64,000 bases of DNA from a virus, in IMG/VR virus record IMGVR_UViG_3300022916_000006, positions 54,746-118,745 of that record. One strand, given 5' to 3'. Positions within the stretch are counted from its first letter, which is position 1. Every line of letters starts with the position of its first letter. Positions 30-62,160 of the stretch are shown piece after piece. A model generated the notes under the pieces. The model was not told the origin of the DNA, made no database searches, and was given only the letters and a program-made list of their open reading frames with translations. Both the position numbers and the translations under genes were made by a program.

Positions 30-1370
30 TTGGATGGTGTATATGATATTTCAGATTACAGTTTGATGAATTCACATAATGCAGAAATCAAACCAAATAC
101 ATTAAAAAAATATATACAACAAAAATGGAGTGATAAATATATGAAGCCAATTAGTTTTATAATACCAAGCAGAACAAATCTAAAATATTTAAAACAAGCA
201 TATAATTCAATAAGACAAAATCTACATCCAATGCATGAAATTTGTATTGCCGATGATGCTTCAACAGATGATACTTGGAAGTGGTTGACTGAAAAAGTCA
301 AAACAGATGTTAATTTAAAATTATATAAAAATGAAGGTCCAGATAGATTAGGTCACACAATATTATATGATACATTGGTGAATGAAATATCAACAAAGGA
401 TATTATCTGTATATTTCATGCTGATATGTATGCATGTAAAGGATTAGATGATGAGTTTATTAAATATCTAAAGCCAAGTGTAGTTGTGTCAGGTACTCGA
501 ATTGAACCACCATTACATCCAGACGGTCCTGAAAAGATAATAAAAGATTTTGGAATAGAACCAGAAGAATTTAAAGAAAGTGAATTAAACGATTTTGTTG
601 AAAATTTAAAAAATCAACATAGAACCAAATTAACAAATGGTATATTTGCACCCTGGGCTATGTATAAAGATGACTTTCAATCAATTCATGGACACGATCC
701 ATTATATGCCCCACAATCAAAAGAAGATTCGGACATCTTTAATAAGATGCATCTTGCTGGATATGATTTTATTCAGACTTGGAATGGTTTTGTATATCAT
801 ATGACATGTCGTGGAAGTAGATTTGCTGATGGTGCAAAGAGAAATCCAAATGGTGAAGTATTTATGAAAAATCGTGAGACTGATGAATGGTTGACTCAGA
901 ATAAAAAATCACATAGAAACTTCATTCGTAAATGGAGCTCAACGGTATTACATGATGCATATTTGAAACCAATAGTAAAGAATAAATATAATATTGGATT
1001 AGTAATATCAAATGCTAACTATGAATTAATTGAAATACTTGAACCATTCTTTGCAACATTATATGTAGATTGTGATTTTAAAATATATGTTGACAATGAA
1101 CAACCAAACACATTATATTCAATGATGGATAGAGTACAGAATATTGATGTTACACCACATAATGATATTGTTGTAGAATTCGATGCATCAAAATTAACAA
1201 ATGAATTGCTCAATGAATTCTTGATAAAATTATCAGATGTGATTGCAGATTCTGGTGAAATTGGTGAGTTCGAATATGAGATATTTAAAATAAAAATAAA
1301 AAGTGTTTCATCATATCAAAAAGATTTATTATATTATGATAACAATATAATCAATAAAAGAGCGTTTTAA
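30..1370 (+). CDS. Glycosyltransferase family 2 (GT-A fold) with C-terminal extension
   Basis: ISFIIP...EICIADDASTDDT and FHADMY motifs. ATG at 141 has GGAG upstream, but the frame is open back to the window edge, so the real start may be 141 or outside the window. Confidence 0.85.
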   Translation: MDGVYDISDYSLMNSHNAEIKPNTLKKYIQQKWSDKYMKPISFIIPSRTNLKYLKQAYNSIRQNLHPMHEICIADDASTDDTWKWLTEKVKTDVNLKLYKNEGPDRLGHTILYDTLVNEISTKDIICIFHADMYACKGLDDEFIKYLKPSVVVSGTRIEPPLHPDGPEKIIKDFGIEPEEFKESELNDFVENLKNQHRTKLTNGIFAPWAMYKDDFQSIHGHDPLYAPQSKEDSDIFNKMHLAGYDFIQTWNGFVYHMTCRGSRFADGAKRNPNGEVFMKNRETDEWLTQNKKSHRNFIRKWSSTVLHDAYLKPIVKNKYNIGLVISNANYELIEILEPFFATLYVDCDFKIYVDNEQPNTLYSMMDRVQNIDVTPHNDIVVEFDASKLTNELLNEFLIKLSDVIADSGEIGEFEYEIFKIKIKSVSSYQKDLLYYDNNIINKRAF

Positions 1371-3566
1371 TGAAATATCCATGTTATATAGTCAAGATGA
1401 AGTCAACCAACAATATGGCGTTTAGTTGTAGTCCAGCATATTTAACCAAAGCATCAACAGGTGTTGTGACTGGTAAAATATGGATAGATTCTAATATTAA
1501 TGATGCTATTAGATTTGAAAGAAACGTAGATATAAAAAACTTACATAAACATGAAATTCCAATTAATTTATCAATATTAGTGGCTAAATATGGCGAACCA
1601 ATGAAAATAAATTCAGAAGCTGAATGGGTAGCAATGATGTTATGAAATATTATATGATATATGATCCAGGTATGAGTGCCACCGAATTAAAATTTGTTTT
1701 TTATAATAGAGCATTGACTGTTTATAAATATACAACTGACTTTAGCAATAGTGATATTGTAGTATCAGATTCTAGAGATAAATTAAATAGTAATAGTGGT
1801 AAACGTTGGGGAAATGTTAAAGTATTTTCTGAAAATGAAATTATACCATATATATTGTAAAACATATGAAATATTATATTATAAGACCCAAGACAGATAT
1901 AAAAAATCCATATATTGCCCAAATGTCTAAGAATGATTATTATGCTACCCGTAATGTTGAAGACATTGTATCATTTAAAACCAAGTCTGAAGCTCAAAGA
2001 GTGATAGCACATGAAAGTATGAGGTATCCTGAGTTCTGGTGTGATGCTTATGTGATAGATGAAAATGAACTGATACCCCATCTGTTATGAAATATTATAT
2101 TATACGAATAAGTGATAATGAAAACCATTACAAATATGTTATGACAAGTGGATCAGGGTTACATTATGGGGCATCACCAGACTATACAAGGATAACAGCA
2201 TTCAAGTCCAAAACACAAGCACAAAACATAATAACTGCAGGCTGTAAACGTGATATGAATTTTTGGCATGATATGGTGGTAGTAAATGAGAATGAATTGG
2301 TTGCACATATTTTATGAAACGTTATTATATTGTATGGAAATATGTTGATATTGATAAGAGTTCAGTTGGAAATTGGCTCTGGCATTATGCTTACATGCGT
2401 AAGTATGTAATTGATGATGAACATGATGTTTTTTATTGGACATTTAATATAAATGAAGCACGGGTTTTTAATTATAAACTTTATGCTAAATGGTACATGT
2501 GGAGTCGAAAACGAACAGCTCATATGTGTATATTATCAGAACAAGAATTAGTATTGAAATTATTATGAACAAATATTATATTGTATATCGTGTTAGTAGC
2601 TCAAATGAGTACGTATATAGAGGATCGAATGGGTGGTTGAGTACAACAAATGATAGAAAAATTATACCATATGAATCATATGAACATGCTATGGTGGATT
2701 ATGTTGGGTTGCATTGGGATATAGCGGATAACACATCAATAATGGATGAAATTGAATTGCTTGCTAAATTATTATGAACAAAACGCTCAAACCAAGAATA
2801 TATCCATATTATGTATTAAGATTAAAAGATGGTAAAAAAGGATATGCATCTCAAGTACATCATCGTAAAACATCTCACATATTTAGACGACAATTTGGAT
2901 CATTTAAACAAACAGTCAAGCGACCTAAGATAATACATTCAGTGGATATGTTGGAAGCTCATAAATTTAAAACCTTTATTGAAGCATATGCTATGTGCAA
3001 TATTAGTGTGAAATGGACCAATGAAGATAGTTTATATGATATAATTAAAATATCAGATGAAGCATGTGAAATGGTATATTTATTATGAAACATTATATAA
3101 TATATAAAGATGAAAGAGATAGTGGATATGTTCAATATGATATTACGGCAAATTCTTATGAATTAACTAAAAATATTAATAATATTATTGGATTTGATTC
3201 CAAAAGAAAAGCACAATTTATGATTACAGAGAGAATTAATTATTGTATTAAGCGTGGGTATAATTATCACTTCTGGAGTTATGTAACAATAGTGACAGAA
3301 AGTGAATTGGTTGCATATTTATTATGAAATATTATATTATAGCAATAAAGGGTGATACAACATATTACAGATCATATTTCTTAAGGAGACATGAAGATAT
3401 ATATTCATACTGGTCAATAAAATTTAAAAAAGCAATAGAATTTATATCTAGGGATGAAGCAACTAAGTTTACAAAAACTCATAGCTATAAATATACAGTT
3501 GGTGTACCATCTATGAGTGATCTTAAAATTGTATCAGAAACTGAATTAGTTGCATATTTATTATAG
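1370..3566 (+). other. MKYY...ELVAYLL family block 1 (9 CDS: 1370-1645, 1642-1860, 1866-2090, 2087-2317, 2314-2568, 2565-2777, 2774-3088, 3085-3327, 3324-3566)
   Basis: Shared N- and C-terminal motifs and ATGA overlaps; starts 1642 and 2565 corrected from the ORF track. Confidence 0.9.
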
Positions 3567-3601
3567 TGTAAGAGAATAACATATGAATAAGGAAAATTAA
3601 A

Positions 3602-3748
3602 ATGACAAAGGTGGATTACAATGCCTTTGATGATGATAAGAATGACGGCTTTAAAAAAAGCAAGAAGCGCATCAAACGAATAAAAAAACGAAAAAGTGGC
3701 TATGATAAGAAATCATCAGATCACAGAAAAAACAAACCAAAGAGGTAA
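3602..3748 (+). CDS. Small basic protein (48 aa, Lys/Arg-rich)
   Basis: AAGGA RBS; MTKVDYNAFDDDKNDGFKKSKKRIKRIKKRK...; below the ORF-track cutoff. Confidence 0.55.
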   Translation: MTKVDYNAFDDDKNDGFKKSKKRIKRIKKRKSGYDKKSSDHRKNKPKR

Positions 3749-3753
3749 GTTAC

Positions 3754-8940: not shown

Positions 8941-9363
8941 ATGAAAGCTCGCTTAGTAACAAATCACGCTGTAGATTTTATATTAACTGCATTATTAATA
9001 ACATTAATTGGTGCATTTGTGATATCAATGTTTGCTGGTGATCCAGATGATTCTGTATATGCTAATAGTCCTGAAACCATTTTACAACCAACAACACCAA
9101 CAGATGTAAATGTGGTCACATATGATATGTCAATTGAAGTGACAAGACATAATGGTGATGTTGATACATTATCATATTCACATAGTACTAATAAATTATG
9201 GATTGATGGAAAAGGTGATCGTACATATTTAATGACATCATATCCAGAATCAGAAATTAACATTAAATACAATACTGATGAAAATGGTAAAACTGATACT
9301 TTATATTATGATCGAGTAGTATCATATGATGTTAAATCATATAGGATTCTATCAGCTGAATGA
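8941..9363 (+). CDS. Signal-anchored protein (GDxDT-motif family)
   Basis: N-terminal TM; IEVTRHNGDVDTLSY; start corrected to MKARL. Confidence 0.7.
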   Translation: MKARLVTNHAVDFILTALLITLIGAFVISMFAGDPDDSVYANSPETILQPTTPTDVNVVTYDMSIEVTRHNGDVDTLSYSHSTNKLWIDGKGDRTYLMTSYPESEINIKYNTDENGKTDTLYYDRVVSYDVKSYRILSAE

Positions 9364-11231
9364 TACGTTATTATATTTTAGGAACCCATATTAATGGTAA
9401 TGCTCCTGCTGGTATATATCTTGGTGATAACTTTTCAAGAGATACATATGGTAATGGAATAAGATGGAGTAAATTATCAACATGCCCATCTACTGTAGGT
9501 GATGTATCATTTAGTGCTGGATCATATCATATATTTAAAAATGAACATACAGCACAACAAAAATTAAATATGTTATTAAAACAAAAAAAGTTGAATATAG
9601 ATGCTTATAGTTTTAAAGTTATTTCAGACTCAGAGATGGTAGCATTAATATTATGAAATCTAAAAAATATTATATCGTAGACGTTGATAATGAAGCAAAT
9701 ATGACTGATATGAGTATGTTGTATGAAGTATATTATTATAAGAAATTACCATTCCCTACAAATAAGAACACTCCAATATTATACAGTAGTACATGGAGTA
9801 GTTGGCAATATGGTTATCGTATAAATAAATCAGACATATTTAATAGATCGATGGAATTGGATTCAAAAAAGAAAGCTGAGTTTTTAATAAACGAATTGAA
9901 AAAATTACAAGAGAATTTTGGTAAGAATATTGTTGCAATGTCAAGAGAGGACATTGAACTTAGATTGGTGATAGACGAATTATGAAATCTGAAAAATATT
10001 ATATTGTATCTCAATTTATTGGTGATGCGTCTGCTATGGGATTTAATGGCGAATTTGATCGTATAGCTTGTTACGTTAATACAACAGCAACTTGGACTGG
10101 TAAGCTAAAGGACGCTAAACATTTCAATTCGAAAGATGAGGCTCAAAAATATTATGATGATGTTATAACAATGCCAGATGGATATATTGATCATATATTA
10201 AATACAGATGAAATTGAAGCCCTTAAAATAGCTGTAGAATTATGAAATGGTATGTATTCAATACGGGAGAATATGGTGAAGAAGATACTTATCGTGAAAT
10301 ATTTCTACATACTGGCAATGTTAATCTTAGTAGTGGATGGAGATGTCTACAATCTGTAATTGATGTGGATGGCATTTATCACTGTGAATTTAAAACAAAA
10401 GAAGACGCAATTGAGGCAATGGAAAATGCCACAGACAAACTACCAAGTGATATAGTTATTAATGGGTCAGAGTTAATGGTATATGTATTATGAAATGGTA
10501 TATTTTATGGAAACATGATGCGAGTGATATAACAGTTTTCGTTCGCAAAGTTGAAGACTTCAATAAAAGAAATAATCTATATTCAATAACTATGGAAATT
10601 GAAGACGCTCTAGTATTTGATACTGAGAATGATGCTCTTGATAATTTAGAGATAATGTGCGATGATAAAAATACAATTGGATATGAAGTAGTATCTGAAA
10701 CTAAATTGATTGCTATGATGTTATGAAGTGGTATGTAGTTAATTCTGGGCGTTATTTTACTTACAAGGGGAAGCCAAAGATTGAAATACTTGTACACACT
10801 TTCAATATTAGGAATGGAACTGAAATTGGTTGGCAAGAGATTGAAGATATAGTTGATTTTGATGAGTGTGCTTTTAAAACAAAAGCTGAAGCAACTAATG
10901 CTAAAGCAACCAATACATATAAACAATCAAGTGATCTTGTCGTTAATGAATATGGATTGGTTGCATTTTTATTATGAAATGTTATATCATATATTACTCA
11001 CCTACTACGTTAGATATTGTTTCTTATAATAATAATAGCGAATATAAGAATGTCTTACAATGGGAAGCATATATAGGGTCAGGAGCTAAACATAGTATTA
11101 ATCCAAGGCCATATTTATTTAAAACCAAAGCTGAAGCTAAATTATGGTATAATGATAGAAGTAAAAATGAAAATAAATTAATGAACGATAAAATCATATC
11201 AGAAAAAGAATTAATGTTTTATTTATTATGA
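9360..11231 (+). other. MKYY family block 2 (7 CDS: 9360-9656, 9653-9985, 9982-10245, 10242-10493, 10490-10726, 10723-10977, 10974-11231)
   Basis: Shared motifs, ATGA overlaps. Confidence 0.9.
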
Positions 11232-11584: not shown

Positions 11585-14500
11585 ATGAAATTTTATATTA
11601 TACATGTTAGTGAGAAGTTTGGAATACGATATGCGACTGCACGAATTACATGGTCGCTAGATTTTAGTAAGTCTTTATCATTTCCCACCCGTAAGAAAGC
11701 ACGAGATTATTACAGTGATAATTTAATTAAAATTGATCCATATTTTAAAAGAAAAATCGTAGCTGATGCAGAATTGACAATAATGAAATTATGAAATCTG
11801 AAAAATATTATGTGATATATCACAATAGACCACATGATTTTGTGTATGTGAGATCAGACGCCGCTAAGATACGAGATGATGATTTAACGATTATGACAAT
11901 TGATCCATTGTGGTCTAATTATTTTGATTGTGCTAAATCATTCAATTCGTATGATGAAGCATTGAAATGTGCAAATAAATTATATCATAAATCTCAGTTC
12001 AGAAGTGGTTATGATTATATGGATGATATTCATATATTGACAGAAGAAGAATTGGTGGCGTATGCAATCTAATTACTAAAAAAATAAATTGGAGAAAGAG
12101 TTATGAAATGTTATATATTTAATGAAAAATTTAAAGCATATCCATATTCTGGATTGGAATATGGATTGTGGTATAATGTGGATGATGTGAAACAAGGAAT
12201 GATGTGTTCTGGTAATCCAAAGTGCAGACCATTTAAAACAGCAAAAGATGCAGAAGATGCTATTCAAGAACGATATGGTGAAGTCTCATGGATGTATGTT
12301 GTACTGGAATCAAAAATAATTGCAGATTTATTGTAGAGATATGGGATATTATGTGATAGCATATTCATTAACTTTAACTAATATGTGGTATAAAACAACA
12401 CCAGAATATAACTATTGGACATTTAATAAATCTCAAGCACTGGTATATAATACATCAACTCAAGCTGAATATGTTAAATCACAGAATACATTAACTAAAG
12501 ACTATGGGATACAAGTTGTGCGTGAGCAAGAACTTGAAACGTTCAAAGTTATGATTGAATTGTGATGAAGCATTATGTAGTATCAATGAGTGGTAATCAT
12601 TTACGATTTTATGTTACTAAAAAGATTGATAATAATAAATTAATTTGGATAGGTGGCTCAAATTTAAAAGACACCTCAATTCATCCATTTAAGACTAGAG
12701 AGGATGCTGTCAAGTGGTATAAATATTGTGATGTTAATACTAAAGAGGATAAATACGATAAAGTTGTATCAGATGCAGAATTGATGGTTATATTGTTATG
12801 AAATATTATATTATATGCACAGACGATGCTAATAGTGATGTTGTTACGTATATTGAAGATACAACACATAGTAGGTATTCGTCTTCATTTTTAACTAACG
12901 ATGTATCAAAAGCTGTGGTATTTAATAATGAGAAATCAGCTATAGATTATATGCAAGCTGGGTTATTTGCCACATCAACATGTGATATTATTATATCAGA
13001 AAAAGAATTGATTGCAAGGTTATTATGAAATATTATGTAGTTGATAAAAGTGACCGTGAAGATTTACCATTCATGAGCAATAGTTTTGAAATGTGTACGG
13101 ATGGTAAAGATCAATTTGATTGGTTTGGAAATGATAACATTGAACTGGTTGTACCATTTAATTCACATGAAGATGCTTTGAGGAATGTAGTTAAAGAGAA
13201 AATAAGACTAGCAAAATATTATGAAATTACTCCTTATGAACTTGATATTGAAATACTAACAGAAAATGAATTTGTGGCATATTTGATATGACGAAAAAGA
13301 AAAAACTCTATTATTATCTATATGATCCAGATGATACTCGATATACATATGGTGGTATTGATGAAGAGTGGGATGATAAATTATCATTGATAACACCATT
13401 TGATTCTTATGAAGATGCTGAAGAAGAACAGGTGAGTTGGTCAGAATGTCCAAATATGACAATAGAGTCAATGACAGAAGCAGAATATATAGCACTTATA
13501 TTATGAAATATATATGAAATATTATATTGTAAATACACGTAAATTTTTAATAACAAATGGAAGTGATAAGCGAGGTTATGCTTGGTCAACAGATATATCA
13601 CTAGCCAAAGTATTTAAAACTAAGAAGAGTGCAGAAGATGCTATGCGCATTCTTAGTACATGGTGGAATTTAACTTTTGATGATCAGGACCACAATTATA
13701 TACAAACTGAAGCAGAAGTGGTGGCAATGATATTATGAAATATTATATATATAATACGACAAATATGAGACATCGATATCAAGGAATATCAGACTGGTGG
13801 TGCGAAATACCTGTAGATGGATACGACTCATTAACTAGGGAAATGATCATTGAGGAAAATACACATATCATACCATTCAATTCAAAAGGGGATGCACAAA
13901 AGAGGTTGGATCAATTAATAAAAAGTAATAGATATGGACGACAATTTACTGAAGATTGCATTGTAGTATCAGAAAATGAATTAGTGGTTTATATGTTATG
14001 AAATATTATCTATTTGATACGGATGAAACGTATCATCAATATTGTGGAAAAAACAATAGCTGGTCTGGTATGTTTTCAGAAGTAATTCCATTTGATTCAT
14101 ATGAAGATGCAAAAAAATGTTATGATGATGAAACGTGGATGGAGTTTGAAGATATAATAATAATATCAGAACACGAATTAGTGGCGAGAATGTTATGACT
14201 AAATATTATTTAATAGCAATAGATAAAACAGATATAGATATGATATATGTATATACATCAGATATCGATGGTTATGTAAAATGGAGAAATTGGGCAATGT
14301 TAGAACATATTGATAAGGTAAATACTGATGTGCCATTACAAACTCTTAAAAAAAGATATAATAAACGAGGCATACATAAATTAAATAGAACTCAGTATAA
14401 TTTTGAAATAATGACAGAGGTTGAATTAGTGGCACTACTATTATGAAGTACTATATAGTGGGAATTGCTGATGTGGTTGAACATACACGATATGCAGTGG

Positions 14501-17500
14501 ATGGTGGTATGGTAACTGGAGAATCAAAGTTTGGTGAATATAGGGGGTATAATGAATCATATGATGTTAAAAAATGTACTTCATTCAATTCATATGATGA
14601 TGCACTTAATGCTATGACCACACCTTGTGATAATCCAGACTTTTGGAATGGTATGAAAATAGTATCAGAAACTGAACTAGTGGCACTACTATTATGAAGT
14701 ACTATGTATTATCAATATCTAAAAAATACCATGATATACTATATTGGTATGATAATAAACCCGTTAGACGATGGTTTACTTCAAAAAGAGAAGCTATTAT
14801 TTATTTAAATTTACTTAATAAAAAAGAACCAATACATGATGATTGGTATCGGGTTATATATGATGAAAATGAACTTAATGTATTATTGGTTGCTAAAGCA
14901 TTATGAAACGTTATTATATATATGATCCAAATGATCCAACTGAATTTATTTTTACTAGAGAAGGGTGGTCTACACGTGTATCGGATGCAAATCCATTTAC
15001 TTCATATAAAGAAGCTAAAGATAAATTAGATGAATTTACATCATCATCATATAGTTTTATAATAGAAGACCTTATTGTTGTAAATGAAAATGAATTAGTG
15101 GTATATTTACTATGATGAAATATTATATATATGATCAACTAGATACTTATAAACCATATAGAGGAGTTAGTGATCAATGGATGACTGATGCTCAACAACT
15201 TAGTCCTGATGATAGAAAACATCTACATATTGTTGAACATAAAGATATAATACCATTCAAATCAAGAGAATCAGCCAGTTTAGAACTTGCTATGTTAAAA
15301 GATCGTAGGTGGCATAAACGTTGCATGGTAGTATCAGAACAAGAACTAATAATAAAAATGTTATGAAATGAAATGAAATGAAATGAAATACTATATATAC
15401 GATCCAATTGATAAAATACAACCATATAGAGGATATAATAAATGGGTTAATAGTACTACAACTTTAGAAGAATTAATTCCATATGAATCATATGATCAAG
15501 CTAAAAACGTTTTATTTGCTATAGAGCCACGTGATTCTACATGGAAAATAGTAACAGAAGAAGAACTAATAGCATTAATGTTATGAGATACATATGAAAT
15601 ATTATATATTAGATAAACACCAAAGATATTTAGATATAAATCAATATAGTTGGACATGGACAACTCGTATAGAATGTGCAAAGATATTTAATACTAGAGA
15701 AGAAGCTGAGCATTATGATATACATCACATTCATGGATATCCTAATACTAAAGTAGTATCAGACGCAGAATTGGTAGCAATGTTAATATGAAGAATACTA
15801 ATATGAATGATATGAATGATGATGGAAATATTATCAGGTATGTTATACTAATGAATAATCCTACGCTTAATTATATACTTGGTACTACACAAAATAAATC
15901 AAGTATAGTTGAATATACGTATGTAAATAAGATGGGTCAAACTAAAATTAATATCACTAATGATTGTATATATACATCAGAGTATGAAGCTCAACAAGTA
16001 ATTGAAGAACATTTACCATATACATATCGAGAAGGTTTATTGGAAATCGTTAACATGAAACATCTTGTGGCTTATCTATTATGAAATATTACGTAGTAGA
16101 AATAATTAACAATAGATTAGAATATTATATACACTATAATGGCAATAATAAAGGTAATATATGGATGGATTTAGAACATGAAGATGAATATCCAATACAT
16201 GCATTTAACTCATATGAAGAAGCTAAAGAATATTATGATAATAGTGAAGATATATATAAAGCAAGCGGAACAGATAAAATTATAAATGAAAATGAATTAA
16301 TAGCATATCTCTTATGAAATATTATATAGTATTTTGTGCATTATATAAACACCTAATAAACGGTGATAATATGGACTGGTATGTGTGGCAAAATGCACAT
16401 CATAATCCAGAAGTATTCAACTCTAAAGAGGACGCACTTATGTACATTAATATGTTTGATTATTTAAAGCAACATTATGCTAGTGGTAAAATGAAGATAG
16501 TAGATGAAAATGTAGTAGTAGCATATATGTTATGAAATATTATATAATAGCATATACAGATTATAAAAAATATATACATTTTAAAGGTAAACCAACTTAT
16601 GGATATTGGACTAGAAATTTAGATCATGCTGAAACATATAAAACAAGACAAATTGGAGAAGATATCATTAAATTTCAACGGAAAAGAATGTTAACAACAT
16701 ATACAATTAAAGTATTATCAGAAAACGAACTAATACCATATCTCTTATGAAATATTATTATATAATTCAATGTACTAATAGAGACGATACTAATTGTAAT
16801 AAATATGCGGCCACTAACGAGTCTGATGATACATATACTACAAATTATAATCATATGTTAATATTTGATTCTCGTAAATTAGCTAAACAAGATATAAAAG
16901 AATATGGTGATGAAACTATTGAAAGAGTTAGTAGAATATCAGAAGCAGAACTAATGACATATCTATTATGAAACATATGAAATATTATCTATATGATTCA
17001 ACAGCTCCCAATTATATATATGGTGGAATAAATAATCATTGGAGTAGTGAGGTATCAAATGTAACCCCATATGATACTTATGGTGAAGCATTATATACTT
17101 ATAATAGATATTGGAATACTGATAAGTATAAACATATAAAAATAGTAACAGAGAATGAACTAGTAGCATATCTATTATGAGATATTACGTATGGCATATT
17201 AAAACAAATGAATTATATCATGTCCTTGAAAATAATATATATCTATCAAGAGAAGAAGCTATGGTAGGTGTTACAAATTATATGGCTGACTGGAGAACAA
17301 TTATATCAGTAGATGATGTAATAATATTAAATGAAAATGAATACATAGCTTATATATTATGAAAGAAAATCACAAATATTATTTAATAGCAACCGATAAA
17401 CAGTCTGAAGTGGTATACGTATATTACATTAACAATACTCGTACTTACAGCAGTACCAATTGGATAAATATAAAAACTATTAATGAAAGTAAAATCATAA

Positions 17501-18306
17501 CTGAAAATGAGATATCATTGAGTGATCTCAAAAAAGAATTAAAATCACAAAAACATAATCTAAACTCATTTAATTTTAAAATAATAACAGAGAATGAACT
17601 AATAGCCTATATATTATGAAATATTATATATTAGATAAAAGAGATGATGAATATGTACATAAAAATCGTGGTACACTAGGAACTCCAGGAAACAGGTGGA
17701 CAACAAATATAATCAATGCTATAACATTTAATAATAAAGTAGATGCAACTGAATATTATCATACAGTATTATTTACAAGTAAATATTATAGAGTAGTATC
17801 AGAAACAGAACTAATAGCACGTTTATTATGAAATATTATATAATATATTCTTACTTACGTGATATGAGTACATATATTCCTTGGATTGAGATATTAGAAG
17901 GTGATCTCACATATACTAGAACTCCAATGATATTTAAAACAAAAAAGAAAGCCATAAAATATATCAATGATGAGACAGTAATATTAAAACAATATTATAA
18001 AAGAGGACAGGTAAAAGTAGTAGATGAAAATGAATACATAGCCTATATATTATGAAACATATGAAATATTATATATATGATAGAGGAGATATAAGTTTTC
18101 CATTTAGAGGTAAAACTGGTTGGTATGATAAAGACTATCAACATTTAAGTGAAATATTACCATATGATTCATACGAAGAAGCAAGACAATATATTCAAGA
18201 TGCTCCATATGTATTAGATATCTCATTTAGTAGAATATTACGTCGAAGTGAAATAAAAAGATTAAGCGTAATATCAGAATCAGAATTAATAATAATAATG
18301 TTATGA
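11585..18306 (+). other. MKYY family block 3 (29 CDS starting 11585, 11791, 12103, 12341, 12562, 12798, 13025, 13288, 13514, 13735, 13998, 14195, 14443, 14694, 14903, 15112, 15383, 15594, 15788, 16081, 16314, 16532, 16747, 16968, 17177, 17359, 17616, 17828, 18052)
   Basis: Uninterrupted head-to-tail run; every ORF ends in the E-x-E-L...L tail or a variant. Confidence 0.92.
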
Positions 18307-21444: not shown

Positions 21445-22476
21445 GTGAAGTACTACATATTATCATCTGATAAGAGTTTAATATTGCATCAGCATAAAAG
21501 TGAAGTCGATAATAAATGGTGGGAATCTATAGATTGGACTCATGGTGGATATTATGCTACTACAAGGGGTGGTCATACCTATAAGAGTTATGAACTAATG
21601 GCATTTGAATCACGAGAAGAAGCTGAAAAAATTATAAACAATCGTAAGTATGGTACAGATCGAGATGATGAAGTTTTATCAGAAGCAGAAGTAGTGGCAA
21701 TGATGTTATGAAATGTTATCTATTAGCAATCCCAAAGACAAGCTTTAAAAAAGGTAAAGATTCAATGTGGTATTGTGGAGCTGTACAATATATAGGTCCT
21801 CTAACATATAACTTACATGGATGGATTGAAGACGTTGACGATGCTAAAATGATACCATCAAAGACTATGGCTAGAAAGATAATAAAAGATAGTAAAACTC
21901 ATGGAGACAATGAAAGTGGATATAATTATAGAATAGTACCAGTCTCTGAAGTAGTAGCTAGGCTTCTATAATGGTAGCATAGAGGGCTTATAATCATCAT
22001 GAAGTGGTACATAGTCAACACAAAATTTTTAACACAGAAGAATGGTAAAGAATATAAAACATTCGAAATATATATACATACAAGACCATCAGGCACTGAA
22101 TGGAGAGGAGCATATAAAGAACTCAATATAGACTATGAGAAGGACTGTTCATTCAAGACAGAAGTAGAGGCAACATTTGCAATGAATAATAGTGATAAAC
22201 AACTAACTACTGATAGAGTAATATCAGAAGATGAACTAGTAATATTGATATTATGAAGTACATATGAAACGTTATTATATATACGATTGTGATGATAATA
22301 TATTTCCATATTTTGGTATTAATGGATGGTGTATAATAGCACAAGAAAAGATTAAACCATTTGAGTCATATAAAAAAGCACATAATGCATTGGAAATGAT
22401 ATTACATGGAGTAGGTAGAAATCGCAAACATTATAAGATAGTATCAGAAGATGAGCTGATAATATTACTATTATAA
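21445..22476 (+). other. MKYY family block 4 (4 CDS: 21445-21711, 21708-21971, 21999-22256, 22264-22476)
   Basis: Shared motifs. Confidence 0.9.
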
Positions 22477-23037: not shown

Positions 23038-23397
23038 ATGAACAAATATTTGGTAACAATCGAGTTTAGATTCTCAGTTACACCAAAGCATGATGATGAT
23101 TTTACCAGCAAAACAAAGAAAATAACAATTGGTGTTTATGACGATCTGAAGAGTGCTTGTGATAATGGCAATAAAAACTTAAAGGTGCTTGAGTCTAAAT
23201 TTGAACTAAATCCCAACTACAATAATAAAGAACAAAGATTCAGTGCTAATGGTGGTTGTTTTAATATTCCAATAACTTTGGTTACACATCTAGGATATCT
23301 ACTAACACCTTTTGAGTTTTATGCCAAAATAACAACATTGAATTTTGAGTCAACTGAGAATGCCATAAACGAAGTTGTGGATGCAATAAACGATTGA
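23038..23397 (+). CDS. Hypothetical protein
   Basis: AAGGA RBS; start corrected to MNKYL. Confidence 0.75.
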   Translation: MNKYLVTIEFRFSVTPKHDDDFTSKTKKITIGVYDDLKSACDNGNKNLKVLESKFELNPNYNNKEQRFSANGGCFNIPITLVTHLGYLLTPFEFYAKITTLNFESTENAINEVVDAIND

Positions 23398-26300
23398 AAT
23401 ATCACATTGTATATTTAATTACAGCAAAACACTTTGGAAAGCCACATGGTAGGCTATCATTCTATTTGAAAAACAATACGTGGAGTACGGTGCTAAGTCG
23501 TACTTATCGAGAGTTGGGGTTTCAAGCAGTTGCATCCTTCGACACACGAGATGAGGCTACCACTAAAATGAAAACGTTATATTCCACACATAGGGTTAAA
23601 AATGGTAGAGCTCAAACATTGGTGGTGCGAACTGATGAGATTGAGTCAATGCAGGATGCGTTGTCTGTGATGATCCAATTGTGATGTGAAAAAAAGTCTT
23701 TGTTTATATTATATTATGGTTTTAAATTTCAATCATGAGACAAGAGAAAGAAAACAAAAAAGGAACACACACATGTGTTTGCATCACATGAAGTTAGAGA
23801 AATATCAGAATCTGAATTGATTGCACTATTGATATGAAATATTACATAATACGAAACATGAATATAAAAAAAAGAAGTAAACGTAATCGCACTACTTACG
23901 TGTACGATACTGGCAAAGTAGATAATGGTGCTCGTAATATTCATGGTTTAGTAAATGAATTCAGAGCATATGATAATATTAATTATGCCACCACATATGA
24001 TAATAGACAAGAACCACAAAATATTATTAAACTAGGAAAACTATATAGTGGTAGTGACACTTGGTGGAATGATGCTGAAGTATTATCAGAAGCACAACTT
24101 AAAGCATATATGGTTATATTAGAATTGTGAAACGATATTTGATAATTGATCCACTTGATAATACATATATACTTAAAGATACGAGTGCTATATGGGGAAG
24201 ATCAGTGGATGATGCCGCCTCATTTGATACTAAAGAAGAAGCTAAAATATATTTAAAAAAAATAATATATAAATATGTAGTGCGAAATCAATGTGAACCT
24301 GTTATGAAAAGACATATCATTTTAACAGAACCAGAATTAATTGTGAGGATGTTATGAAATTTTATTACGTAGTTGTTTTAAAGTTATCAGCGACACCATA
24401 TCACAATGCATATTTAGATCGTTATGGGATGTGGCATAGGACCTTGGATGATGATTGTAGATTTTCAAAAAAATATGATGCCATAAGTGTTTGTAAAGAA
24501 CGTTGGTCCATCGCCTGGCATGAGGGTAGAATTGACATCATAACAGAACCAGAATTAATTGCGAGGATGTTATGAATAATAATAATAATAATAATATGAA
24601 GTTTCATATAGTACAAGCAGTTTCAATGATATGGGAACACGCCCCATGTGGAATAGTGTTATATTATTTAGCAGAAGATGCATGGATGGTCGAATATTCA
24701 TTGTTGAAGGACAGTGGATGTTTGATTGCATCGTTTGATTCGCACAATGAAGCTACCGATAAAATGGAATCATTGAAAAATCATGGACATATTTTTAAGA
24801 CAAATGATTCCACGTCACAAATGATGGTGGTGCAAACTGATGAACTTGCTACAATGAAAGATTCATTGGATGTGATGGTTAAATTGTGATATGAAATATG
24901 TTGCATTAAGATTGAAAGATTATATTAGTGATCCTTCTAGATATTCATATATATGTACCAATGGTATGTGGCAATATGATTATGATCCAAAGTTCTGCTT
25001 ATTTGAATCAAAAGAACAAGCAATGAAAATAATAGACTTTCACTGGCCTCATGTCTATAAATCAAAATGTATAAAGTTATTAACTGAGAGTGAATTAATA
25101 GCTTACTTATTATAAAACATATATGAAAAAAAAACATTACATTTTTATAAAGCTTAGAGGAGAAGATCAATATGTTACAACTGAATCAATGTATTTTGAT
25201 GCAGGTGCATATACATCAGATATAAGATATGCTAGAATATATGAATCAAAAAAAATTGCAGAATTGGATATGGTTGGTTTTGGTGAAATTCCAAGAAAAC
25301 ATGAAAGAATTTTAATAATGTCTGAATCAGAATATATGGCTAGATTATTGTGAAACAATATTTAATAGCAACATATATAATTGATGATACCTCATATTTA
25401 TATACTCCAACACGCCCAAGTGGTATGGGTACATGGACAGCTATATCAGAATTAACTATGGATATATTCAACGATATAAATACAAGTCAATCAGAGATGG
25501 ATGATAAAGTGAAGTCATTAAGACACGTTCCAACTTATACTTTTAAGATCATATCAGAAATAGAATTAATGGTGATGGTATTATGAAATATATGAAATAC
25601 TATATAATATATATGTGGGCAAGTGAACCGTCAAACTGGCGTATATGGACTCATCTTGGTACTGATAAACCTCAATCGTTTAAAACTAGAAATAAAGCAA
25701 TGAAGTATATTAATCATAGTATACCATTGAGTAGACATTATAAAAAGGGATATATAAAAATAGTAAATGAAAATGAAGTGGTAGCTTATATATTGTGAAA
25801 CATATGAAATACTACATAATACGATTGAGTAAAGATAACTTTTTTAATGAATATGGATTTATACAACAACATTACGATGAGTTGAGAGTGCTACATTATA
25901 GAACAGTGAGAATATCAAAAGCGACAATATTTAAATCAAGAACAGACGCTCAAAATATAATTGATGCTAAACCACATTATGATGCATTTTGGACAAATAC
26001 TAAAGTGTTAAATGAAAATGAAGTAGTTGCATATCTATTGTGAAACATATGAAATACTACCTACTAGGAATTGATAAAGAACATATAGATAGTGTATATG
26101 TATATACTACCAATAGTACACAACATAAGCGTGTAGATTATGCTAATTGGACACATATAAGATATATCAATGAAGTGGATACAGAGATACCATTACAGAC
26201 GCTTAAAGATGTGATTGATAATATAGATAAATTGAATACAACTGTATACAAATTTAAAATAGTAAGTGAGCCAGAACTAGTGGTAATGATGATATGACCT

Positions 26301-29300: not shown

Positions 29301-29500
29301 CCGATAAACACTATCTAAGACATTTTAATGTAGATATTGATGATGTGTGTGAGTGGACACCCAATTATGATGAAGCATTGAATATTGATGATCGGGCTAT
29401 GGGTCAGGGTATGGTAAAAGAGTTGCTATGCCCATGTAAATGTGATGAAATGAGAATTTTATTAATGTCAGATCAAGATTTAGTTGCACACTTATTATAG
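23394..29500 (+). other. MKYY family block 5 (24 CDS starting 23394, 23834, 24127, 24354, 24572, 24891, 25123, 25350, 25583, 25795, 26040, 26294, 26515, 26730, 26969, 27199, 27420, 27665, 28072, 28284, 28589, 28777, 29001, 29273)
   Basis: Head-to-tail run with shared motifs; one internal promoter at 23700-23730. Confidence 0.92.
23700..23730 (+). promoter_or_regulatory. Class A promoter inside block 5
   Basis: TTG-N20-TAAATTTC then a leader ending AAGGAACACACACATG. Confidence 0.65.
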
Positions 29501-32607: not shown

Positions 32608-32623
32608 ATACTAAATATAATGG

Positions 32624-32655: not shown

Positions 32656-32697
32656 AATAGTTATGAGACACACAAATCACACAATTGGAGAAAACTT

Positions 32698-32889: not shown

Positions 32890-32906
32890 ATAAAGAATAA
32901 ACACAC

Positions 32907-39839: not shown

Positions 39840-40634
39840 GTGAAATATTATATAAAATTTATGGAAAATAATTTACTATCTGGTTTTGTAATGCCAGGAA
39901 AGTTAGAGGATATTCCCATTCATAGGGGCATATCAGATGATCCTAAATTTGCTGAAGCATTCACATTAAAATGGAAAGCACAACATCTATCAGATGAAAT
40001 AAATGCAGACAACCTAGAACATGGTATAACTCGTAAGACTAAATGTATTGTAATAACAGAAACAGAATTGATTGCACTTATATTGTGACGATCATATGAA
40101 ATATTATTGTATTATACGATTGGGACCAAAACGATTATCATATTTAGATATGCATTGGAGATTTAGGCAGGTTACTACCGATGGAACGGTTGATTATGCC
40201 ATAAGAACGTTTTATACAGCTGAATATGCTGAAGAGCGAAAATCCAGAATTATACGACGATCTGTATTTAGACAAAAGAAAAGAAATCGAAATCGAGATA
40301 AAACGCATCGTTGTGTTAAAATTCCAAACTTAAAAGTGATATGTATGGATGAACTATCAGCATATAAAGTTGCATATATATTATGAAATATTATGTAGTA
40401 ACTCCACCTGGTTGTAGACTATGGTATGTGCGTGGTATTATTAATCACAGATTCGTTTGGGTTGACGATATTAAAGATGCTATATCATTTAAAACTGCTC
40501 GTGATGGATGGAAGTTTACAGAACAAGCGGATAGAGGTGAGGGTAATCATAAATGGAATCGACAAATTCATAATCACTATTTTACTAAACGGGTTGTTAT
40601 GTCTGGTGCAGAATTAATAATTAGAGAATTGTAA
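39840..40634 (+). other. MKYY family block 8 (3 CDS: 39840-40088, 40096-40386, 40383-40634)
   Basis: Shared motifs. Confidence 0.85.
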
Positions 40635-45283: not shown

Positions 45284-45625
45284 ATGAATATTAATAATAT
45301 AAAACATTTTAATAGTGTTAATAATATCAGTATGGTTGATGGTTATAATTATTCATGGGAATATTCATATGATGATCGATCAGATGAAAAATCACTTAGT
45401 ATGTCAATATATGATAAAGAACATAGAACAGTTCATTTTTCATTTGATGTTAAAACTGATATATTATCGATTGTCCCAAATGCATTTTGTTACGAATCCT
45501 CAGATATGATTGAATTTAAATGCACACTTAAAGATGCAGAAATGTTAGTAAAGGCTTCATTGGAAGCAAATGGTACTGAACTGCCACCACTATTCGAAAA
45601 AAGAGAAAGTAATAATTTAAAATGA
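45284..45625 (+). CDS. Hypothetical protein
   Basis: First ORF after the class B promoter. Confidence 0.7.
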   Translation: MNINNIKHFNSVNNISMVDGYNYSWEYSYDDRSDEKSLSMSIYDKEHRTVHFSFDVKTDILSIVPNAFCYESSDMIEFKCTLKDAEMLVKASLEANGTELPPLFEKRESNNLK

Positions 45626-45939
45626 AAAAAGATAACAATGAAAAATATTATATCGTATCCGTTAATTGCAAATTTGATGGATATGTTATATTAGATGTGA
45701 ATGATAATTGGATACGTGCAAAAGAAATTATTAACAGTCACATATTCGAATCTCGCAAATCTGCCAATGATCATTATCTTGGAAGTGTTGATGAAATTAA
45801 TTTAGTCACTAGTGATTTCGAATCAACATTTATTGAAGATGTTAGTACAATACATGATTCGAAAATTAAAACAGATTGGTTTGATGTAGTGGTATCAGAA
45901 AAAGAATTAGATTCACTTACAATAGCAACATTATTATAA
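45622..45939 (+). CDS. MKYY family member (isolated)
   Basis: KYYIVS...W...FESRKSA...VSEKELDSLTIATLL. Confidence 0.8.
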   Translation: MKKDNNEKYYIVSVNCKFDGYVILDVNDNWIRAKEIINSHIFESRKSANDHYLGSVDEINLVTSDFESTFIEDVSTIHDSKIKTDWFDVVVSEKELDSLTIATLL

Positions 45940-46483: not shown

Positions 46484-47362
46484 GTGAATCAATTAGTAAA
46501 ATATATTAATGGTAATACTACTGTTACAATAATGGAAGATGGCACAAAAATACGTGAGTATGAAGGTGATCCTATTGTAGAACATCCAGAAAGCATTGAT
46601 GTTAAGATCACAGATTATTGTGATATGGGATGTGAATATTGTCACGAAGGATCGTCGGTAACAGGAGCACATGCTGATTTGACTACATTGTATGAAACGT
46701 TAAAGATACTCCCGTCTGGGGTTGAATTAGCTCTTGGTGGTGGCAATCCATTATCACATCCGAATCTATTTGAGTTTCTTGTTAAATTAAAAGATCATGG
46801 TTTCATTGCTAATATTACAATCAACCAAAATCATATCACCAGCAATTTTGAATTGATATCAGATTTGATTAATCATAAATTGGTACATGGAATTGGTATA
46901 TCAGTGGTTAATAATAATTTCATCAATAGCATACATCGATTGTTGCAGTTAACAAATAATATTGTATATCATGTGATTGCTGGTATTAATGAGATCACTA
47001 TCATCGATGATTTAAATCGGATGGATGATAATTGTAAAATATTAATATTAGGATATAAAAGATTTGGTCGTGGTGATCAATATTGGAATGTTAAAACACA
47101 TTGTAATCTACATGCATGGAAACATAATATGCGTAAATATATTACAAGTGGTGTGATATCATTTGACAATTTAGCACTTGAGCAATTGGAGATCAAAAAG
47201 TTATTAACGGTTGAAGCTTGGGATCAATTTTACATGGGTGATGATTTTACATTTTCAATGTACGTTGATGGTGTGAAAAGAGAATATGCACCAACGAGCA
47301 CAAGTGAAGAAAGACGAATGCTTTTTTCAGATATGTCTATATTAAAATATTTTAATGAGTAA
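46484..47362 (+). CDS. Radical SAM protein
   Basis: CDMGCEYC (CxxxCxxC), GGGNPL. Confidence 0.9.
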   Translation: MNQLVKYINGNTTVTIMEDGTKIREYEGDPIVEHPESIDVKITDYCDMGCEYCHEGSSVTGAHADLTTLYETLKILPSGVELALGGGNPLSHPNLFEFLVKLKDHGFIANITINQNHITSNFELISDLINHKLVHGIGISVVNNNFINSIHRLLQLTNNIVYHVIAGINEITIIDDLNRMDDNCKILILGYKRFGRGDQYWNVKTHCNLHAWKHNMRKYITSGVISFDNLALEQLEIKKLLTVEAWDQFYMGDDFTFSMYVDGVKREYAPTSTSEERRMLFSDMSILKYFNE

Positions 47363-47851
47363 ATATCATTTAATATTATATCCAATTGGGAGATTTGCAG
47401 AGTCAATAACAGAAGATTTTATGTCTGTTGTTTCATATCGAGCTAGAGACGATTGGTGTGGTGATGGGTGGTGGTGTGAAGATAAAACTTATGCTAAAAT
47501 ATTTAAATCAAAAGAGCAAGCATTACATGATCCAGCACAGAAAGAAGAAACTGTTGGACTTTTAGGAATGTCTATTGTTCCAGTTGATACTGCTGAAGCA
47601 TTTATTGTAGCAATGATGTTATGAAATATTACATATATGATCCACATGGATATTATGGAAAATTTGTTTATAGTAAAAATGGATGGACGGTGGATACAGT
47701 AGGTGCAAAACCATATAATTCATATGAAGAAGCTAAAGAGTATTTTGACGGGGCAGATTGGGGTGAGATGGAGACAGAAAATGGGATGCAGGAAATGAAA
47801 TATCATTACATAATATTAGATGAAAATGAAATTATACCATATCTATTATGA
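47355..47851 (+). other. MKYY family pair (47355-47624, 47621-47851)
   Basis: Shared motifs; appended to the radical SAM gene end. Confidence 0.8.
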
Positions 47852-58332: not shown

Positions 58333-58336
58333 CAAT

Positions 58337-58571: not shown

Positions 58572-58847
58572 ATGAACATAGCACAAAAATTTATGGCTTA
58601 TGTCTTTAAATGGCAATATGTAAGATTGATACATGATTATCGTATGAATCAACCAGATTTAATTAGACGTGCGTATTCTATCGATGATAATTGGTTTGCT
58701 AATCCATATTTACCAAGTACAAGAGTACATTTAACATCTACTGGTACAGTATATAAAGGTAGATATATTATTGATTCTGTGAATTATGCTAGTTATATTG
58801 ATAGTTGGGAGCCAATTACAAAAGGTATGATTGCGTTGTATTTATGA
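58572..58847 (+). CDS. Hypothetical protein
   Basis: AAGGA RBS; start corrected (the ORF-track N-terminus overlaps the tRNA). Confidence 0.7.
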   Translation: MNIAQKFMAYVFKWQYVRLIHDYRMNQPDLIRRAYSIDDNWFANPYLPSTRVHLTSTGTVYKGRYIIDSVNYASYIDSWEPITKGMIALYL

Positions 58848-59773
58848 AATATTGTATTTACGATATAGTCAATGAGAAATATCATACCAAATATGGTAAA
58901 ATGTTTAATTATAAACATTGGCATGATGAATTGACGAGTGATGTACAATTGTTTGATTCATATGAAGATGCATTTGATCATTTAAATCATTGTGATATGG
59001 ATGATATAGTAACAATGATAAAAGAAGTAACAGATGCAGAAGCGGTGATAATGTTATTATGAAATATTATATATATGATAACAAAGTAAAATTATATTTT
59101 AAAGAAATTGGATATTATGAAGAAGGTGAATGGTCGTATGATTTATCAATACGTGTTAGATTCTTTAATTCTAACATTGAGGCTCGAAATTACATGTTTA
59201 CGTGGTTGGAATATAAATGGTACAAACATCTAGAAGTGAAATCAATATCAGATGCAGAATATATTGTAAGAATATTATGAAATATTATATGAAATATTAT
59301 ATATATGATCGAGATGATCCTGAGGAAGTATATTATAATAAGTGTGATATCGATGATCGTAATTCAATGTTCCCCTCAAGGTGGTCCAATAAAATTACAA
59401 GTGAACTTAGATTATTTGATTCATATGAAGATGCTTTTAACTACTCACAACAATGGTCTGATAATATATGGTATCGTGATTTAGAAATAAGATCAATATC
59501 AGAATCAGCGTTTGTGGCAACCATATTATGAAATATTATATAGTGGATAAGTATGAGGATGTAACTTCAATATATTATATAGGAAACCATCGTTGGTATT
59601 CTACATTAAGTAATAATATAAAATTATTTACAACTAGATATTATGCAAAAAAATATATTACATTGAATCTTAATGTTGTGCATCATATCTTTTATAATGG
59701 GATCATACATGGGAATGGTTGCTATGTGATAAAATCAATATCAGATGAAGAAGCTGTAATAACAAAATTATAA
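58844..59773 (+). other. MKYY family block inside the tRNA cluster (4 CDS: 58844-59062, 59059-59280, 59277-59531, 59528-59773)
   Basis: Shared motifs; tails read K(E/S)(V/I)(T/S)D(A/E)E. Confidence 0.9.
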
Positions 59774-60838: not shown

Positions 60839-60904
60839 CTTAAATAAATTTTTAATCAAAAAACATAGGTTCGACTATATTTATTAGTATAGGAGAATTT
60901 ATAA

Positions 60905-61732
60905 ATGAAGAAATGTAAAAAATGTGGTGATGAATTTGAACCACGAAAAGGATTGATAAGTTATTGTTCTTTGTCATGTAGAAACACAAGAGTACATTCA
61001 GAAGAAACTAAAAAGAAAATATCAGATACGAATTCTGGTAAATATTTTGGAACATATGCATTACCAAAAAAATGTAAATATTGTGAAAAAGTATTAGTAG
61101 ATTATTTACGCAAAGCAAATACTTGTAATGGTTGTAAACCGTATGTTCTTAATATAAAATTATTTGAAAAATTAAATATACATGAAACTGATTTAGGTAA
61201 AGCTAACATATTAGCATGTGATAAATTAATTGATTTATATTATTCTAACAATAAATCATTAAGTGAGATATATGAAGAATATAATATACGTGGTAATACC
61301 ATATATTATTTTTTAAAGAAAAACGGAATACCACTACGGACAGTACGTGATGGAGTTAGATTAGCTATTGCATCTGGAAAGATAATAACACCAGTAAATA
61401 AACAATATAAGTCAGGTATACATACGACATGGTTTAATAAAGATATCTTTATGCGTAGTTCATATGAATTTAGATTTGCAACACATTTAGATAAACAGAA
61501 AGTTTTTTACCAATATGAGAAACAATTTGAATATTACTTTGATGATTTATATAGAACATATAGAGCTGATTTTTTTATTCCAGATTGGAATCTTGTGGTT
61601 GAAACAAAAAGTAGATACTATTATGAAAAAGATAAAAAAAAGATTGGAATACAAAGGCAAGCAGTGTTAGATTCAGGGTATGAATTTGTATTGTTATTAG
61701 ATGAAGATGAAATTGATAATTTTAATAAATAA
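60905..61732 (+). CDS. Putative homing endonuclease: Zn fingers plus C-terminal PD-(D/E)XK domain
   Basis: CKKC...CSLSC, CKYC...CNGC; RSSYE...YRADF...VVETK; TATATTTAT motif and AGGAG RBS upstream. Confidence 0.8.
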   Translation: MKKCKKCGDEFEPRKGLISYCSLSCRNTRVHSEETKKKISDTNSGKYFGTYALPKKCKYCEKVLVDYLRKANTCNGCKPYVLNIKLFEKLNIHETDLGKANILACDKLIDLYYSNNKSLSEIYEEYNIRGNTIYYFLKKNGIPLRTVRDGVRLAIASGKIITPVNKQYKSGIHTTWFNKDIFMRSSYEFRFATHLDKQKVFYQYEKQFEYYFDDLYRTYRADFFIPDWNLVVETKSRYYYEKDKKKIGIQRQAVLDSGYEFVLLLDEDEIDNFNK

Positions 61733-61778
61733 GGTCTTTTAAACCATTGGTCGTCGGGTTCAAATCCCACCGCACCTA
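61733..61778 (+). pseudogene. 3' half of split tRNA-Lys(TTT)
   Basis: GGT-CTTTTAA-ACCAT-TGGTC-GTCGGG-TTCAAAT-CCCAC-CGCACCT-A begins immediately after the nuclease stop. Confidence 0.85.
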
Positions 61779-61783
61779 CAAAT

Positions 61784-62160
61784 ATGAAGTACTATATAAT
61801 ATCACATAGAGAAGATGATAAAGGTGATCCTCTAATATCTGATGCAATTGATTTAAATGAAGCAAAAGATTTATTAGCTGAAATTATGGATGCTTTTACT
61901 GGGAGTATAATTTTTCCAGATGCTACATCAGATGATTTTGAAATCGTTGATGAAAATGAAGCAGTGGCATATTTGTTATGAAATATGTTTTAAAATATAC
62001 TATAGATGGTGAATATGTAAGTAAAGATTGTGATACTTATGTATCTAAAATGAGAGATGCTATAGTATTTGATTTAAAAGAAGATGCTGAATCTGAAGCT
62101 GGTGTGACGGAGCGTATAATCGAAATGACAGATGCAGAATATATAGTTAAAATATTATGA
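61784..62160 (+). other. MKYY family pair (61784-61981, 61978-62160)
   Basis: Shared motifs. Confidence 0.85.

Follow-up and report, generated by a model that had tools for sequence, protein, structure and literature searches.

How should a phage region be understood in which small genes follow one another head to tail, with the same beginning and the same end around very different middles? This question is raised by the last 64 kb (bases 54746-118745; herein referred to as the window) of the linear IMG/VR record IMGVR_UViG_3300022916_000006 (118,745 bp; herein referred to as G000). A sequence-only reading of the window had described about 97 such open reading frames (ORFs) and interpreted them as a cassette-like library whose junctions allow genes to be gained, lost and reordered by recombination. 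The library itself was recovered in the present analysis, but its junctions do not look like a recombination device. The array is probably an ancient and stable multigene family of diversified binders, serving host takeover or anti-defense and organized in translationally coupled chains.

The members of the family were collected with a profile hidden Markov model (HMM), which was seeded with the ORFs having the described tail and run for three iterations over all six-frame ORFs of the window at a cut-off of E ≤ 1e-3. The model converged on 93 members, all 93 of them on the plus strand and 0 on the minus strand. Three to four more ORFs are borderline (2774-3088, 12320-12565, 33790-34038, and a stub of 46 amino acids at 31297-31437, which retains both ends only, the middle being gone), and with these the total comes to about 97. 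The count, the division into 11 blocks and the coordinates in the sequence-only reading thus proved accurate. Its two longest blocks, of 29 and 24 genes, correspond to 28 HMM-supported members, or 29 if the borderline ORF 12320-12565 is counted, and to 24 members (Table 1). The members are 60-110 amino acids long (median 78), span 22.5 kb (35% of the window), and account for about 55% of its roughly 169 plus-strand genes. No member was found by the HMM in the remaining 54 kb of G000. The profile consensus, MKYYI ... Y ... W ... F-x-S/T-x-x-E-A ... I-V-S-E-x-E-L-V-A-Y-L-L, contains the start motif, the central W...F motif and the tail motif, all of which had been noted before.

The members are strongly diverged. 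Between pairs of members, amino-acid identity is 25% at the median, 33% at the 95th percentile and 51% at most, the last for a pair in block 5 (26515-26733 and 27199-27423), in agreement with the earlier remark that recent near-identical copies are absent. Mean identity is independent of rank distance, so that neighbors are no more alike than distant members. The nearest paralog of a member lies slightly closer to it than expected by chance (median rank distance 19, versus 27.8 after permutation; p about 0.012). A segmental duplication between the two long blocks was considered and dropped, as no offset stood out.

No named family was found for these proteins, as the earlier reading had stated. 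In Pfam and PHROG scans of 40 members, only scattered sub-threshold matches were found, for example to DUF1033, DUF7336, and NDUS4. The motif W ... F-x-T/S-x-x-E-A is one that we take to resemble the AP2 or Arm-type DNA-binding domain. The AP2 model (PF00847) had no match at E ≤ 10, and the Arm-type model (PF14657) had a weak match in one member only (E 0.029, 11.7 bits).

When 1.84 billion representative proteins were searched with the profile, 83 matched at E ≤ 0.001, including 48 of the window's own proteins and about 20 further small proteins that share the fixed ends. The remaining matches are long proteins with 2-10 fused central W...F-x-S/T-x-x-E-A units and no C-terminal helix, and their per-domain E-values are mostly 1e-3 to 1e-8. 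Judging from these matches, the family is almost confined to this phage lineage, and the repertoire present among representative proteins barely exceeds that of this phage. With one member as a query, tblastn found no match in 50,697 phage records. Searches of viral contigs with single members or neighbor genes gave nothing useful, and one metagenome scan gave one chance match and no family member. The junction pattern had 65 single matches in bacterial and archaeal genomes, with 0 family members among them. In IMG/VR, the same pattern was found in one other record with an array, herein referred to as G001 (57.5 kb, rated 26% complete), from which several of the additional small proteins also come.

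The HMM found 12 members in G001, 8 of them co-oriented with most G001 genes and 4 opposite. The 4 opposite members (G001:9166-10448, plus strand) are wedged between ORFs of 2137 and 1074 amino acids, which are probably structural. Two 127-bp segments are exactly the same at the ends of G001 and G000, but the 1118 bp that lie between them in G000 are missing from G001. Because equal contig-end overlaps of 127 bp fit an assembly-graph bubble, G001 most likely continues this genome or one nearly identical to it. On this assignment, the family would have at least 105 members in about 176 kb (G000 and G001 together). The G001 array at 51.8-52.9 kb contains three genes of one subfamily, 36-62% identical to the window gene 27420-27668, and a fourth whose closest window gene is another one. 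In the window, too, related members are adjacent in a few pairs. The members may therefore plausibly stem from tandem duplication.

In a collection of 15 billion proteins, single window paralogs were found as 1-3 sequence variants on 23-33 contigs. For the gene at 21445, most of the apparent variants are differing start calls only; 7 polymorphic sites are real, and all of these lie outside the conserved core and occur in recombinant combinations. Since each paralog has few variants, the middles are hypervariable between paralogs and not between strains.

Stop and start codons overlap at 81 of 93 member ends (ATGA at 73, GTGA at 8), and the stop codon is TGA in 81 of 93. In these overlaps, the last base of the final codon together with TG forms the start of the next gene, ATG or GTG. 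The final codon is TTA in 74 cases, TTG in 11, and CTA in 3; CTT, CTC, and CTG were found in 0 cases versus about 11 expected. The fused TTATGA and TTGTGA junctions of the sequence-only reading were thus found again. The other positions of the tail use several synonymous codons each, about as the phage's long genes do, and only the last codon is restricted, as it must end in A or G. The longest exact repeats between different junctions are 24-28 bp. The junction is not a specially conserved DNA site, because its synonymous sites vary and its exact repeats do not exceed 28 bp. The recurrent junction of about 45 bp, which had been described as a degenerate repeat, is not conserved beyond the demands of the protein motif, codon usage, and overlap: it is what results when a conserved peptide is written in AT-rich codons with the next start overlapping its end, and mostly a by-product.

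The junctions also carry scars. At 8 of them, the overlap start opens a relay mini-ORF of 2-4 codons, the stop of which overlaps the real start (MKYI-stop, MRYI-stop, MMNI-stop, MTII-stop, MI-stop, and three MK-stop units). Additionally, 5 members have an in-frame 9-nt start duplication (MKH-MKYY or MKY-MKYY), and an (ATGAA)n run was found in block 3 (Table 1). Therefore, slippage or deletion occasionally happens at the level of the junction. No reverse transcriptase (PF00078) was found in G000, although the records are incomplete and one could be encoded elsewhere in the genome. No tyrosine recombinase (PF00589) was found in G000 or G001, with 14 of 14 control genomes matched, and no serine recombinase was found in these 176 kb. 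The earlier statement on the absence of a recombinase or reverse transcriptase from the window thus holds for site-specific recombinases in both records and for reverse transcriptase in G000.

In structure prediction, the family has one small α/β fold, confidently predicted for two divergent members. The AlphaFold2 model of the block 3 member 16968-17180 (70 residues, 40-paralog alignment) has a predicted local distance difference test score (pLDDT) of 94.5 and a predicted template modeling score of 0.81. It contains a strand at residues 6-9, short strands at 17-18, 24-25, and 34, a helix at 38-48, a strand at 58-61, and a helix at 62-69. The AlphaFold model of the divergent long-tail member 9982-10245 (93-member alignment; pLDDT 87.1) has the same order of elements, which would run as strand 1, a hairpin with the conserved Trp, a strand with the conserved Phe, helix 1, strand 5, and helix 2. 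When the model is read against the sequence, MKYYI corresponds to strand 1, and the conserved W and F lie in inner strands. T37-x-x-E40-A41 opens helix 1, I59-V60, i.e., (I/V)(V/I), is the last strand, and T61-E-N-E64 opens helix 2, both helices beginning right after the conserved S/T of S/T-x-x-E. The S/T/N/D-x-x-E pattern at the start of a helix is a classical capping box, and in the models (S/T/N/D)-E-x-E takes this role at the N-terminus of the C-terminal helix. The hydrophobic stripe of this amphipathic helix 2 is formed by L-V-A-x-L-L. As the fixed ends are elements of the fold, the idea that they serve as a free address tag is weakened. Information content is high only in the columns of the scaffold positions, whereas variation is free in the loops, on the surface of helix 1, and in insert length; the isoelectric points (pI) of the members range from 4.05 to 10.15.

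No solved structure matched convincingly in the comparisons. For both models, Foldseek found no match in PDB at E ≤ 0.001. The best VIA-align match of both is the 70-residue chain 8g9s_A from a type I-C CRISPR-Cas3 entry, considered as a candidate anti-CRISPR-like protein, with Z 3.5 (root-mean-square deviation 4.0 Å over 54 residues) and Z 4.2 (3.5 Å over 58 residues), a range that is common for unrelated chains. Only uncharacterized small phage proteins were found in BFVD (best E 0.02, template modeling score 0.64) and only unnamed clusters, below 0.9, in the ESM Atlas. A profile search of PDB sequences found only a WGR domain at E 0.42.

Shine-Dalgarno motifs, scored as GGAG, GAGG, or AGGA 4-20 nt upstream of the start, were found for 34 of 69 long genes of the phage but for only 5 of the 93 family members, versus 6.8% of random windows. 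A Shine-Dalgarno motif embedded in the tail of the upstream gene was ruled out, since the 5 cases are at the level of random windows. By contrast, GGAG or GAGG is present at the two members preceded by a real spacer of 27-30 nt (12103, 21999); for member 21999 of block 4, a 27-nt spacer contains GAGG. As the overlap starts have no such motif, translation probably relies on coupling, and most members are, judging from the sequence, most likely translated by termination-reinitiation from the preceding gene. In this way, ribosomes would be relayed from gene to gene and whole chains co-expressed, possibly with a falling gradient. Together with the common predicted fold and the 81 overlaps, this agrees with the earlier description of a coupled head-to-tail library built on one scaffold with very different middles.

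In a generic scan for promoters and terminators, sites were no more common than in shuffled sequence. Four terminator-like hairpins were found in the 11-31 kb region, all between blocks, and their number equals chance. The gene-poor stretches between blocks, 18306-19128 and 22476-22987, contain direct repeats, including a 35-bp repeat at 18862/18935. A promoter-like motif, TTGCAT-N17-19-T(C/A)A(A/T/C)(T/C)TT, is located at 19089, 22970, and 32624, with 5 matches in total versus 0.45 in shuffles; it is followed by TAGTTATGAGACACACAAA at 19089 and 32624 and not at 22970. Another motif, TTTTATTCTTAA-N-TTTAA, was found at 11262 and 29523, in both cases a short way upstream of the gene that follows a family block, and may represent a second type of promoter or leader.

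According to the preferred reading, the family would have grown long ago by tandem duplication and then diverged to about 25% identity. Its repertoire would now be stable and conserved and would not shuffle, as suggested by the conservation of each paralog's sequence across contigs. The sequences fit an expansion that is old, lineage-specific, and under purifying selection at the protein level. The members would form a battery of diversified binders made in infection, each with a distinct surface and charge on one scaffold and each aimed at a different host or competitor target. This role is suggested by the conserved scaffold as opposed to the variable surfaces, by the wide range of charge, and by the position among non-structural genes. 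Some points weigh against such an interpretation. The near-invariance of paralogs across contigs may in part reflect repeated sampling of one phage population. A 28-gene chain with no Shine-Dalgarno motifs would lose expression steeply unless reinitiation were very efficient; direct initiation permitted by AT-rich mRNA would be another escape from this loss. With no convincing solved relative of the models, the term binder is founded solely on the conservation pattern.

Among the other explanations, that of the recombinational cassette library is unlikely. On this explanation, junction homology would let whole genes be gained, lost, and reordered and would provide an ever-changing set of effectors. 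It retains some weight because scars exist at the junctions, namely the relay mini-ORFs at 8 junctions, the 9-nt start duplications in 5 members, the (ATGAA)n run, and the 46-amino-acid stub that keeps both ends without the middle. A UvsX-type general recombinase is present in the phage. Exact repeats of up to 28 bp are common to the junctions, and the 16-mer TTATGAAATATTATAT was seen 14 times, but the synonymous sites vary there about as in other genes. Shuffling would also have to be reconciled with the lack of near-identical copies, with neighbors no closer than distant members, and with the near-invariance of paralogs on 23-33 contigs. The 1.84 billion representative proteins contained only about 20 additional small members, several of them in G001, and the searches for reverse transcriptase and for tyrosine and serine recombinases gave nothing. 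A comparable case is the lpl cluster of Staphylococcus aureus, in which tandem paralogs with conserved and variable segments are found and the 3′ part of one gene with the 5′ part of the next can act as an evolutionary unit (Tsuru and Kobayashi, 2008, PMC2568036). The phage genes are likewise tandem paralogs with conserved and variable segments. They differ from lpl, where the site is a central conserved DNA segment and rearrangements between strains were shown, in having conserved ends whose DNA is not specially conserved. The claim that the junctions are a recombination device was not upheld, in view of the variable synonymous sites, the shortness of the repeats, the missing neighbor effect, and the near-invariance of paralogs.

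There is a slim chance that the members are internal proteins, packaged and ejected together with the DNA, with the constant N-terminus or the C-terminal tail as the capsid address. One invariant terminal motif on very different bodies would suit this, and the T4 internal proteins with a common targeting sequence are an established precedent. In T-even phages, this capsid targeting sequence is N-terminal, cleaved, and located outside the fold, and one of the internal proteins is an anti-restriction factor. The phage family resembles them in its diverged small bodies with one short terminal motif and differs in that both ends are predicted, with high confidence, to be integral elements of the fold. 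In our reading, V/I-x-E and E-x-E in the tail resemble Glu-specific sites of prohead proteases, yet the tail, with its capping box and hydrophobic stripe, looks less like a free tag than like a packed helix. A cargo of more than 100 different proteins would be without precedent, and the genes lie amid replication, modification, and metabolic genes and not in a structural module, with the exception of the 4 antisense members of G001. A similarly small probability is given to a collective function, in which the members together would form a non-covalent multi-repeat protein that coats or binds, for example, nucleic acid or the cell envelope, instead of having one target each. Translational coupling favors a fixed stoichiometry, and the profile also finds long proteins with fused central units; these relatives, however, are distant and have no C-terminal helix, and a pI of 4 to 10 suits different partners better than one polymer. 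It is very improbable that the array is a non-functional or selfish repeat expansion or that the ORFs are not real genes, considering the strict strand specificity of the matches, the conservation of amino acids while synonymous sites vary, the confident common fold, the intact frames of 93 genes, and the conservation of each paralog across many contigs.

Tandem arrays of small paralogs have been described in phages before. The jumbo phages G and 121Q have tandem arrays with over 30 genes, which were attributed to tandem duplication (Hua et al., 2017, PMC5646251). The array studied here (93 members in 11 blocks) is similar in consisting of long head-to-tail series of co-oriented small paralogs in a large tailed phage. 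Its members are about three times as numerous, their median identity is 25% versus the “very similar” copies in G and 121Q, and they are spread over 11 blocks and the second record G001. The family appears distinct from that of the G and 121Q arrays, judging from the absence of consistent PHROG matches and from the empty tblastn search with one member. Thus, on the sequence evidence, the type of array is already known from phages and the protein family is probably new; the array is also about threefold larger, much more diverged, and nearly devoid of independent ribosome-binding sites.

Hyperplastic regions of T4-type phages also contain clustered small genes of unknown function in a large virulent phage, these being early genes, and PeSL promoter/stem-loop cassettes have been proposed there for modular gain and loss (PMC2839356, PMC4122927). 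The chains in the window differ in having no intergenic DNA, promoter, or stem-loop between genes, mostly 4-nt overlaps, a boundary repeat that is coding sequence, and genes that all belong to one family. A PeSL-type region was ruled out by the 4-nt overlaps and by the hairpins, which lie between blocks and occur at chance level. Amplification of tifA in T4 was described as an example of gene “accordions” in viral counter-defense (bioRxiv 10.1101/2022.04.14.488369). There, a small phage gene is likewise tandemly amplified, but the copies are recent and identical, whereas here they are ancient and diverged, and the link with defense is only conjectural. Integron-type cassettes were rejected, since PF00589 has no match in G000 or G001 and the conservation of the junction is limited to its coding content. 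A diversity-generating retroelement was rejected as well, with no PF00078 match in G000 and no near-identical repeat pairs among the members.

The source of the window is an uncultured large phage with a genome of roughly 190 kb; the completeness of G000 is 62% according to CheckV, and the GC content is about 30% along the whole window. The first 54 kb of G000 encode a DnaB helicase, a UvsX-like recombinase, a ribonucleotide reductase, a polymerase fragment, a DNA methyltransferase, and glycosyltransferases. By DnaB, the closest cultured phages (40-43% identity) are Microcystis phage Mel-JY01 and Flavobacterium phage immuto. The family was not found in the DnaB-nearest phages, namely these two and the uncultured phage LR756508. 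Besides the family, the window encodes two CobS-like AAA+ ATPases, a DUF2201/VWA protein, NAMPT, a phosphoribosyl pyrophosphate (PRPP) synthetase-like protein, an HNH endonuclease, and 12 tRNAs. The coordinates of the blocks and of other features are given in Table 1.

Table 1. Family blocks and other features of the window (positions within the window)
Feature	Position	Strand	Content
Block 1	1370..3566	+	8 HMM-supported members and borderline 2774-3088; first start overlaps the stop of glycosyltransferase gene 3-1370
Block 2	9360..11231	+	7 members; 9653-9985 and 9982-10245 have an alternative longer tail ending ...EL
Block 3	11585..18306	+	28 members (29 with borderline 12320-12565); nearly without intergenic DNA, longest ATGA-overlap chain
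(ATGAA)n run	15367..15386	+	3 consecutive MK-stop mini-ORFs ahead of true start 15383
Block 4	21445..22476	+	4 members
Block 5	23394..29500	+	24 members
Block 6	30777..34038	+	10 members, stub 31297-31437 and borderline 33790-34038
Block 7	39840..40634	+	3 members
Block 8	45622..45939	+	Lone member, 105 amino acids
Block 9	47355..47851	+	2 members
Block 10	58844..59773	+	4 members, within the tRNA gene cluster
Block 11	61784..62160	+	2 members; family goes on past the window in G001
tRNA cluster	57464-62844		12 genes: Gly x2, His, Tyr, Asn, Gln, Glu, Leu x3, Lys, Thr
Segment absent from G001	62756-63873		1118 bp (versus G001:57409-57418)
tRNA-Thr	62771-62844		Within the segment absent from G001
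318-amino-acid ORF	62921-63877		In the segment absent from G001
PRPP-synthetase-like gene	50875-51780		NAD-salvage-type set
P-loop kinase / NT5C-like gene	51777-52745		NAD-salvage-type set
NAMPT gene	52748-54208		NAD-salvage-type set
CobS/MoxR-like AAA+ ATPase genes	5399-7855; 36767-37894		One followed by a DUF2201 metallopeptidase/VWA protein
Zinc-ribbon-like protein genes	3754-3978; 40650-40949		Common C-terminal motif
Gene of 798-amino-acid protein	34092-36488		Internal acidic repeats; 35-bp repeat at 34935 and 35118

The tRNA cluster carries on in G001 with genes for Ala, Asp, and Cys. The proteins of the family are rich in Tyr (8.5%, 1.7-fold versus long genes), and a tRNA-Tyr gene is present within the cluster. 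At the site of the 1118-bp segment, ARAGORN calls in G001 a single uninterrupted 92-nt tRNA-Thr(TGT). By sequence, the G001 site is the “empty site” of a proposed nuclease cassette inserted in a tRNA gene. NAD-salvage gene sets in phages are known as a counter to NAD-depleting defenses, and a set of this type is present in the window. The pairing of a CobS/MoxR-like ATPase with a DUF2201/VWA protein is common in large phages. The two small proteins with the zinc-ribbon-like motif W-x-x-V ... C-x-x-C-G-x-x-x-L-R look like a second small paralog family between the arrays. In the 798-amino-acid protein, the 35-bp repeat codes for N-E-S-D-E-type runs, and only PHROGs of unknown function (phrog_1576) were matched.

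Tandem arrays of small paralogs recur in large phages, and to our knowledge none of them has a known function. As an extreme case, the present array may serve as a model for the function of such arrays, for the efficiency of serial termination-reinitiation, and for fixed phage binder libraries directed against defenses. The conservation pattern splits the scaffold from the variable surface cleanly. This scaffold, small, tolerant of inserts, and with a pI of 4-10 among its members, could be of interest to protein engineers if it turns out to be stable. It is possible, though rather doubtful, that the phage carries more than 100 binders on a scaffold of about 70 residues as a genetically fixed library, which would be the largest paralogous family known in phages. 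If so, each binder would neutralize or redirect one host component, either a defense system or a takeover target, and the chain without Shine-Dalgarno motifs would make co-expression of the entire arsenal graded and all-or-none, driven by a few promoters.

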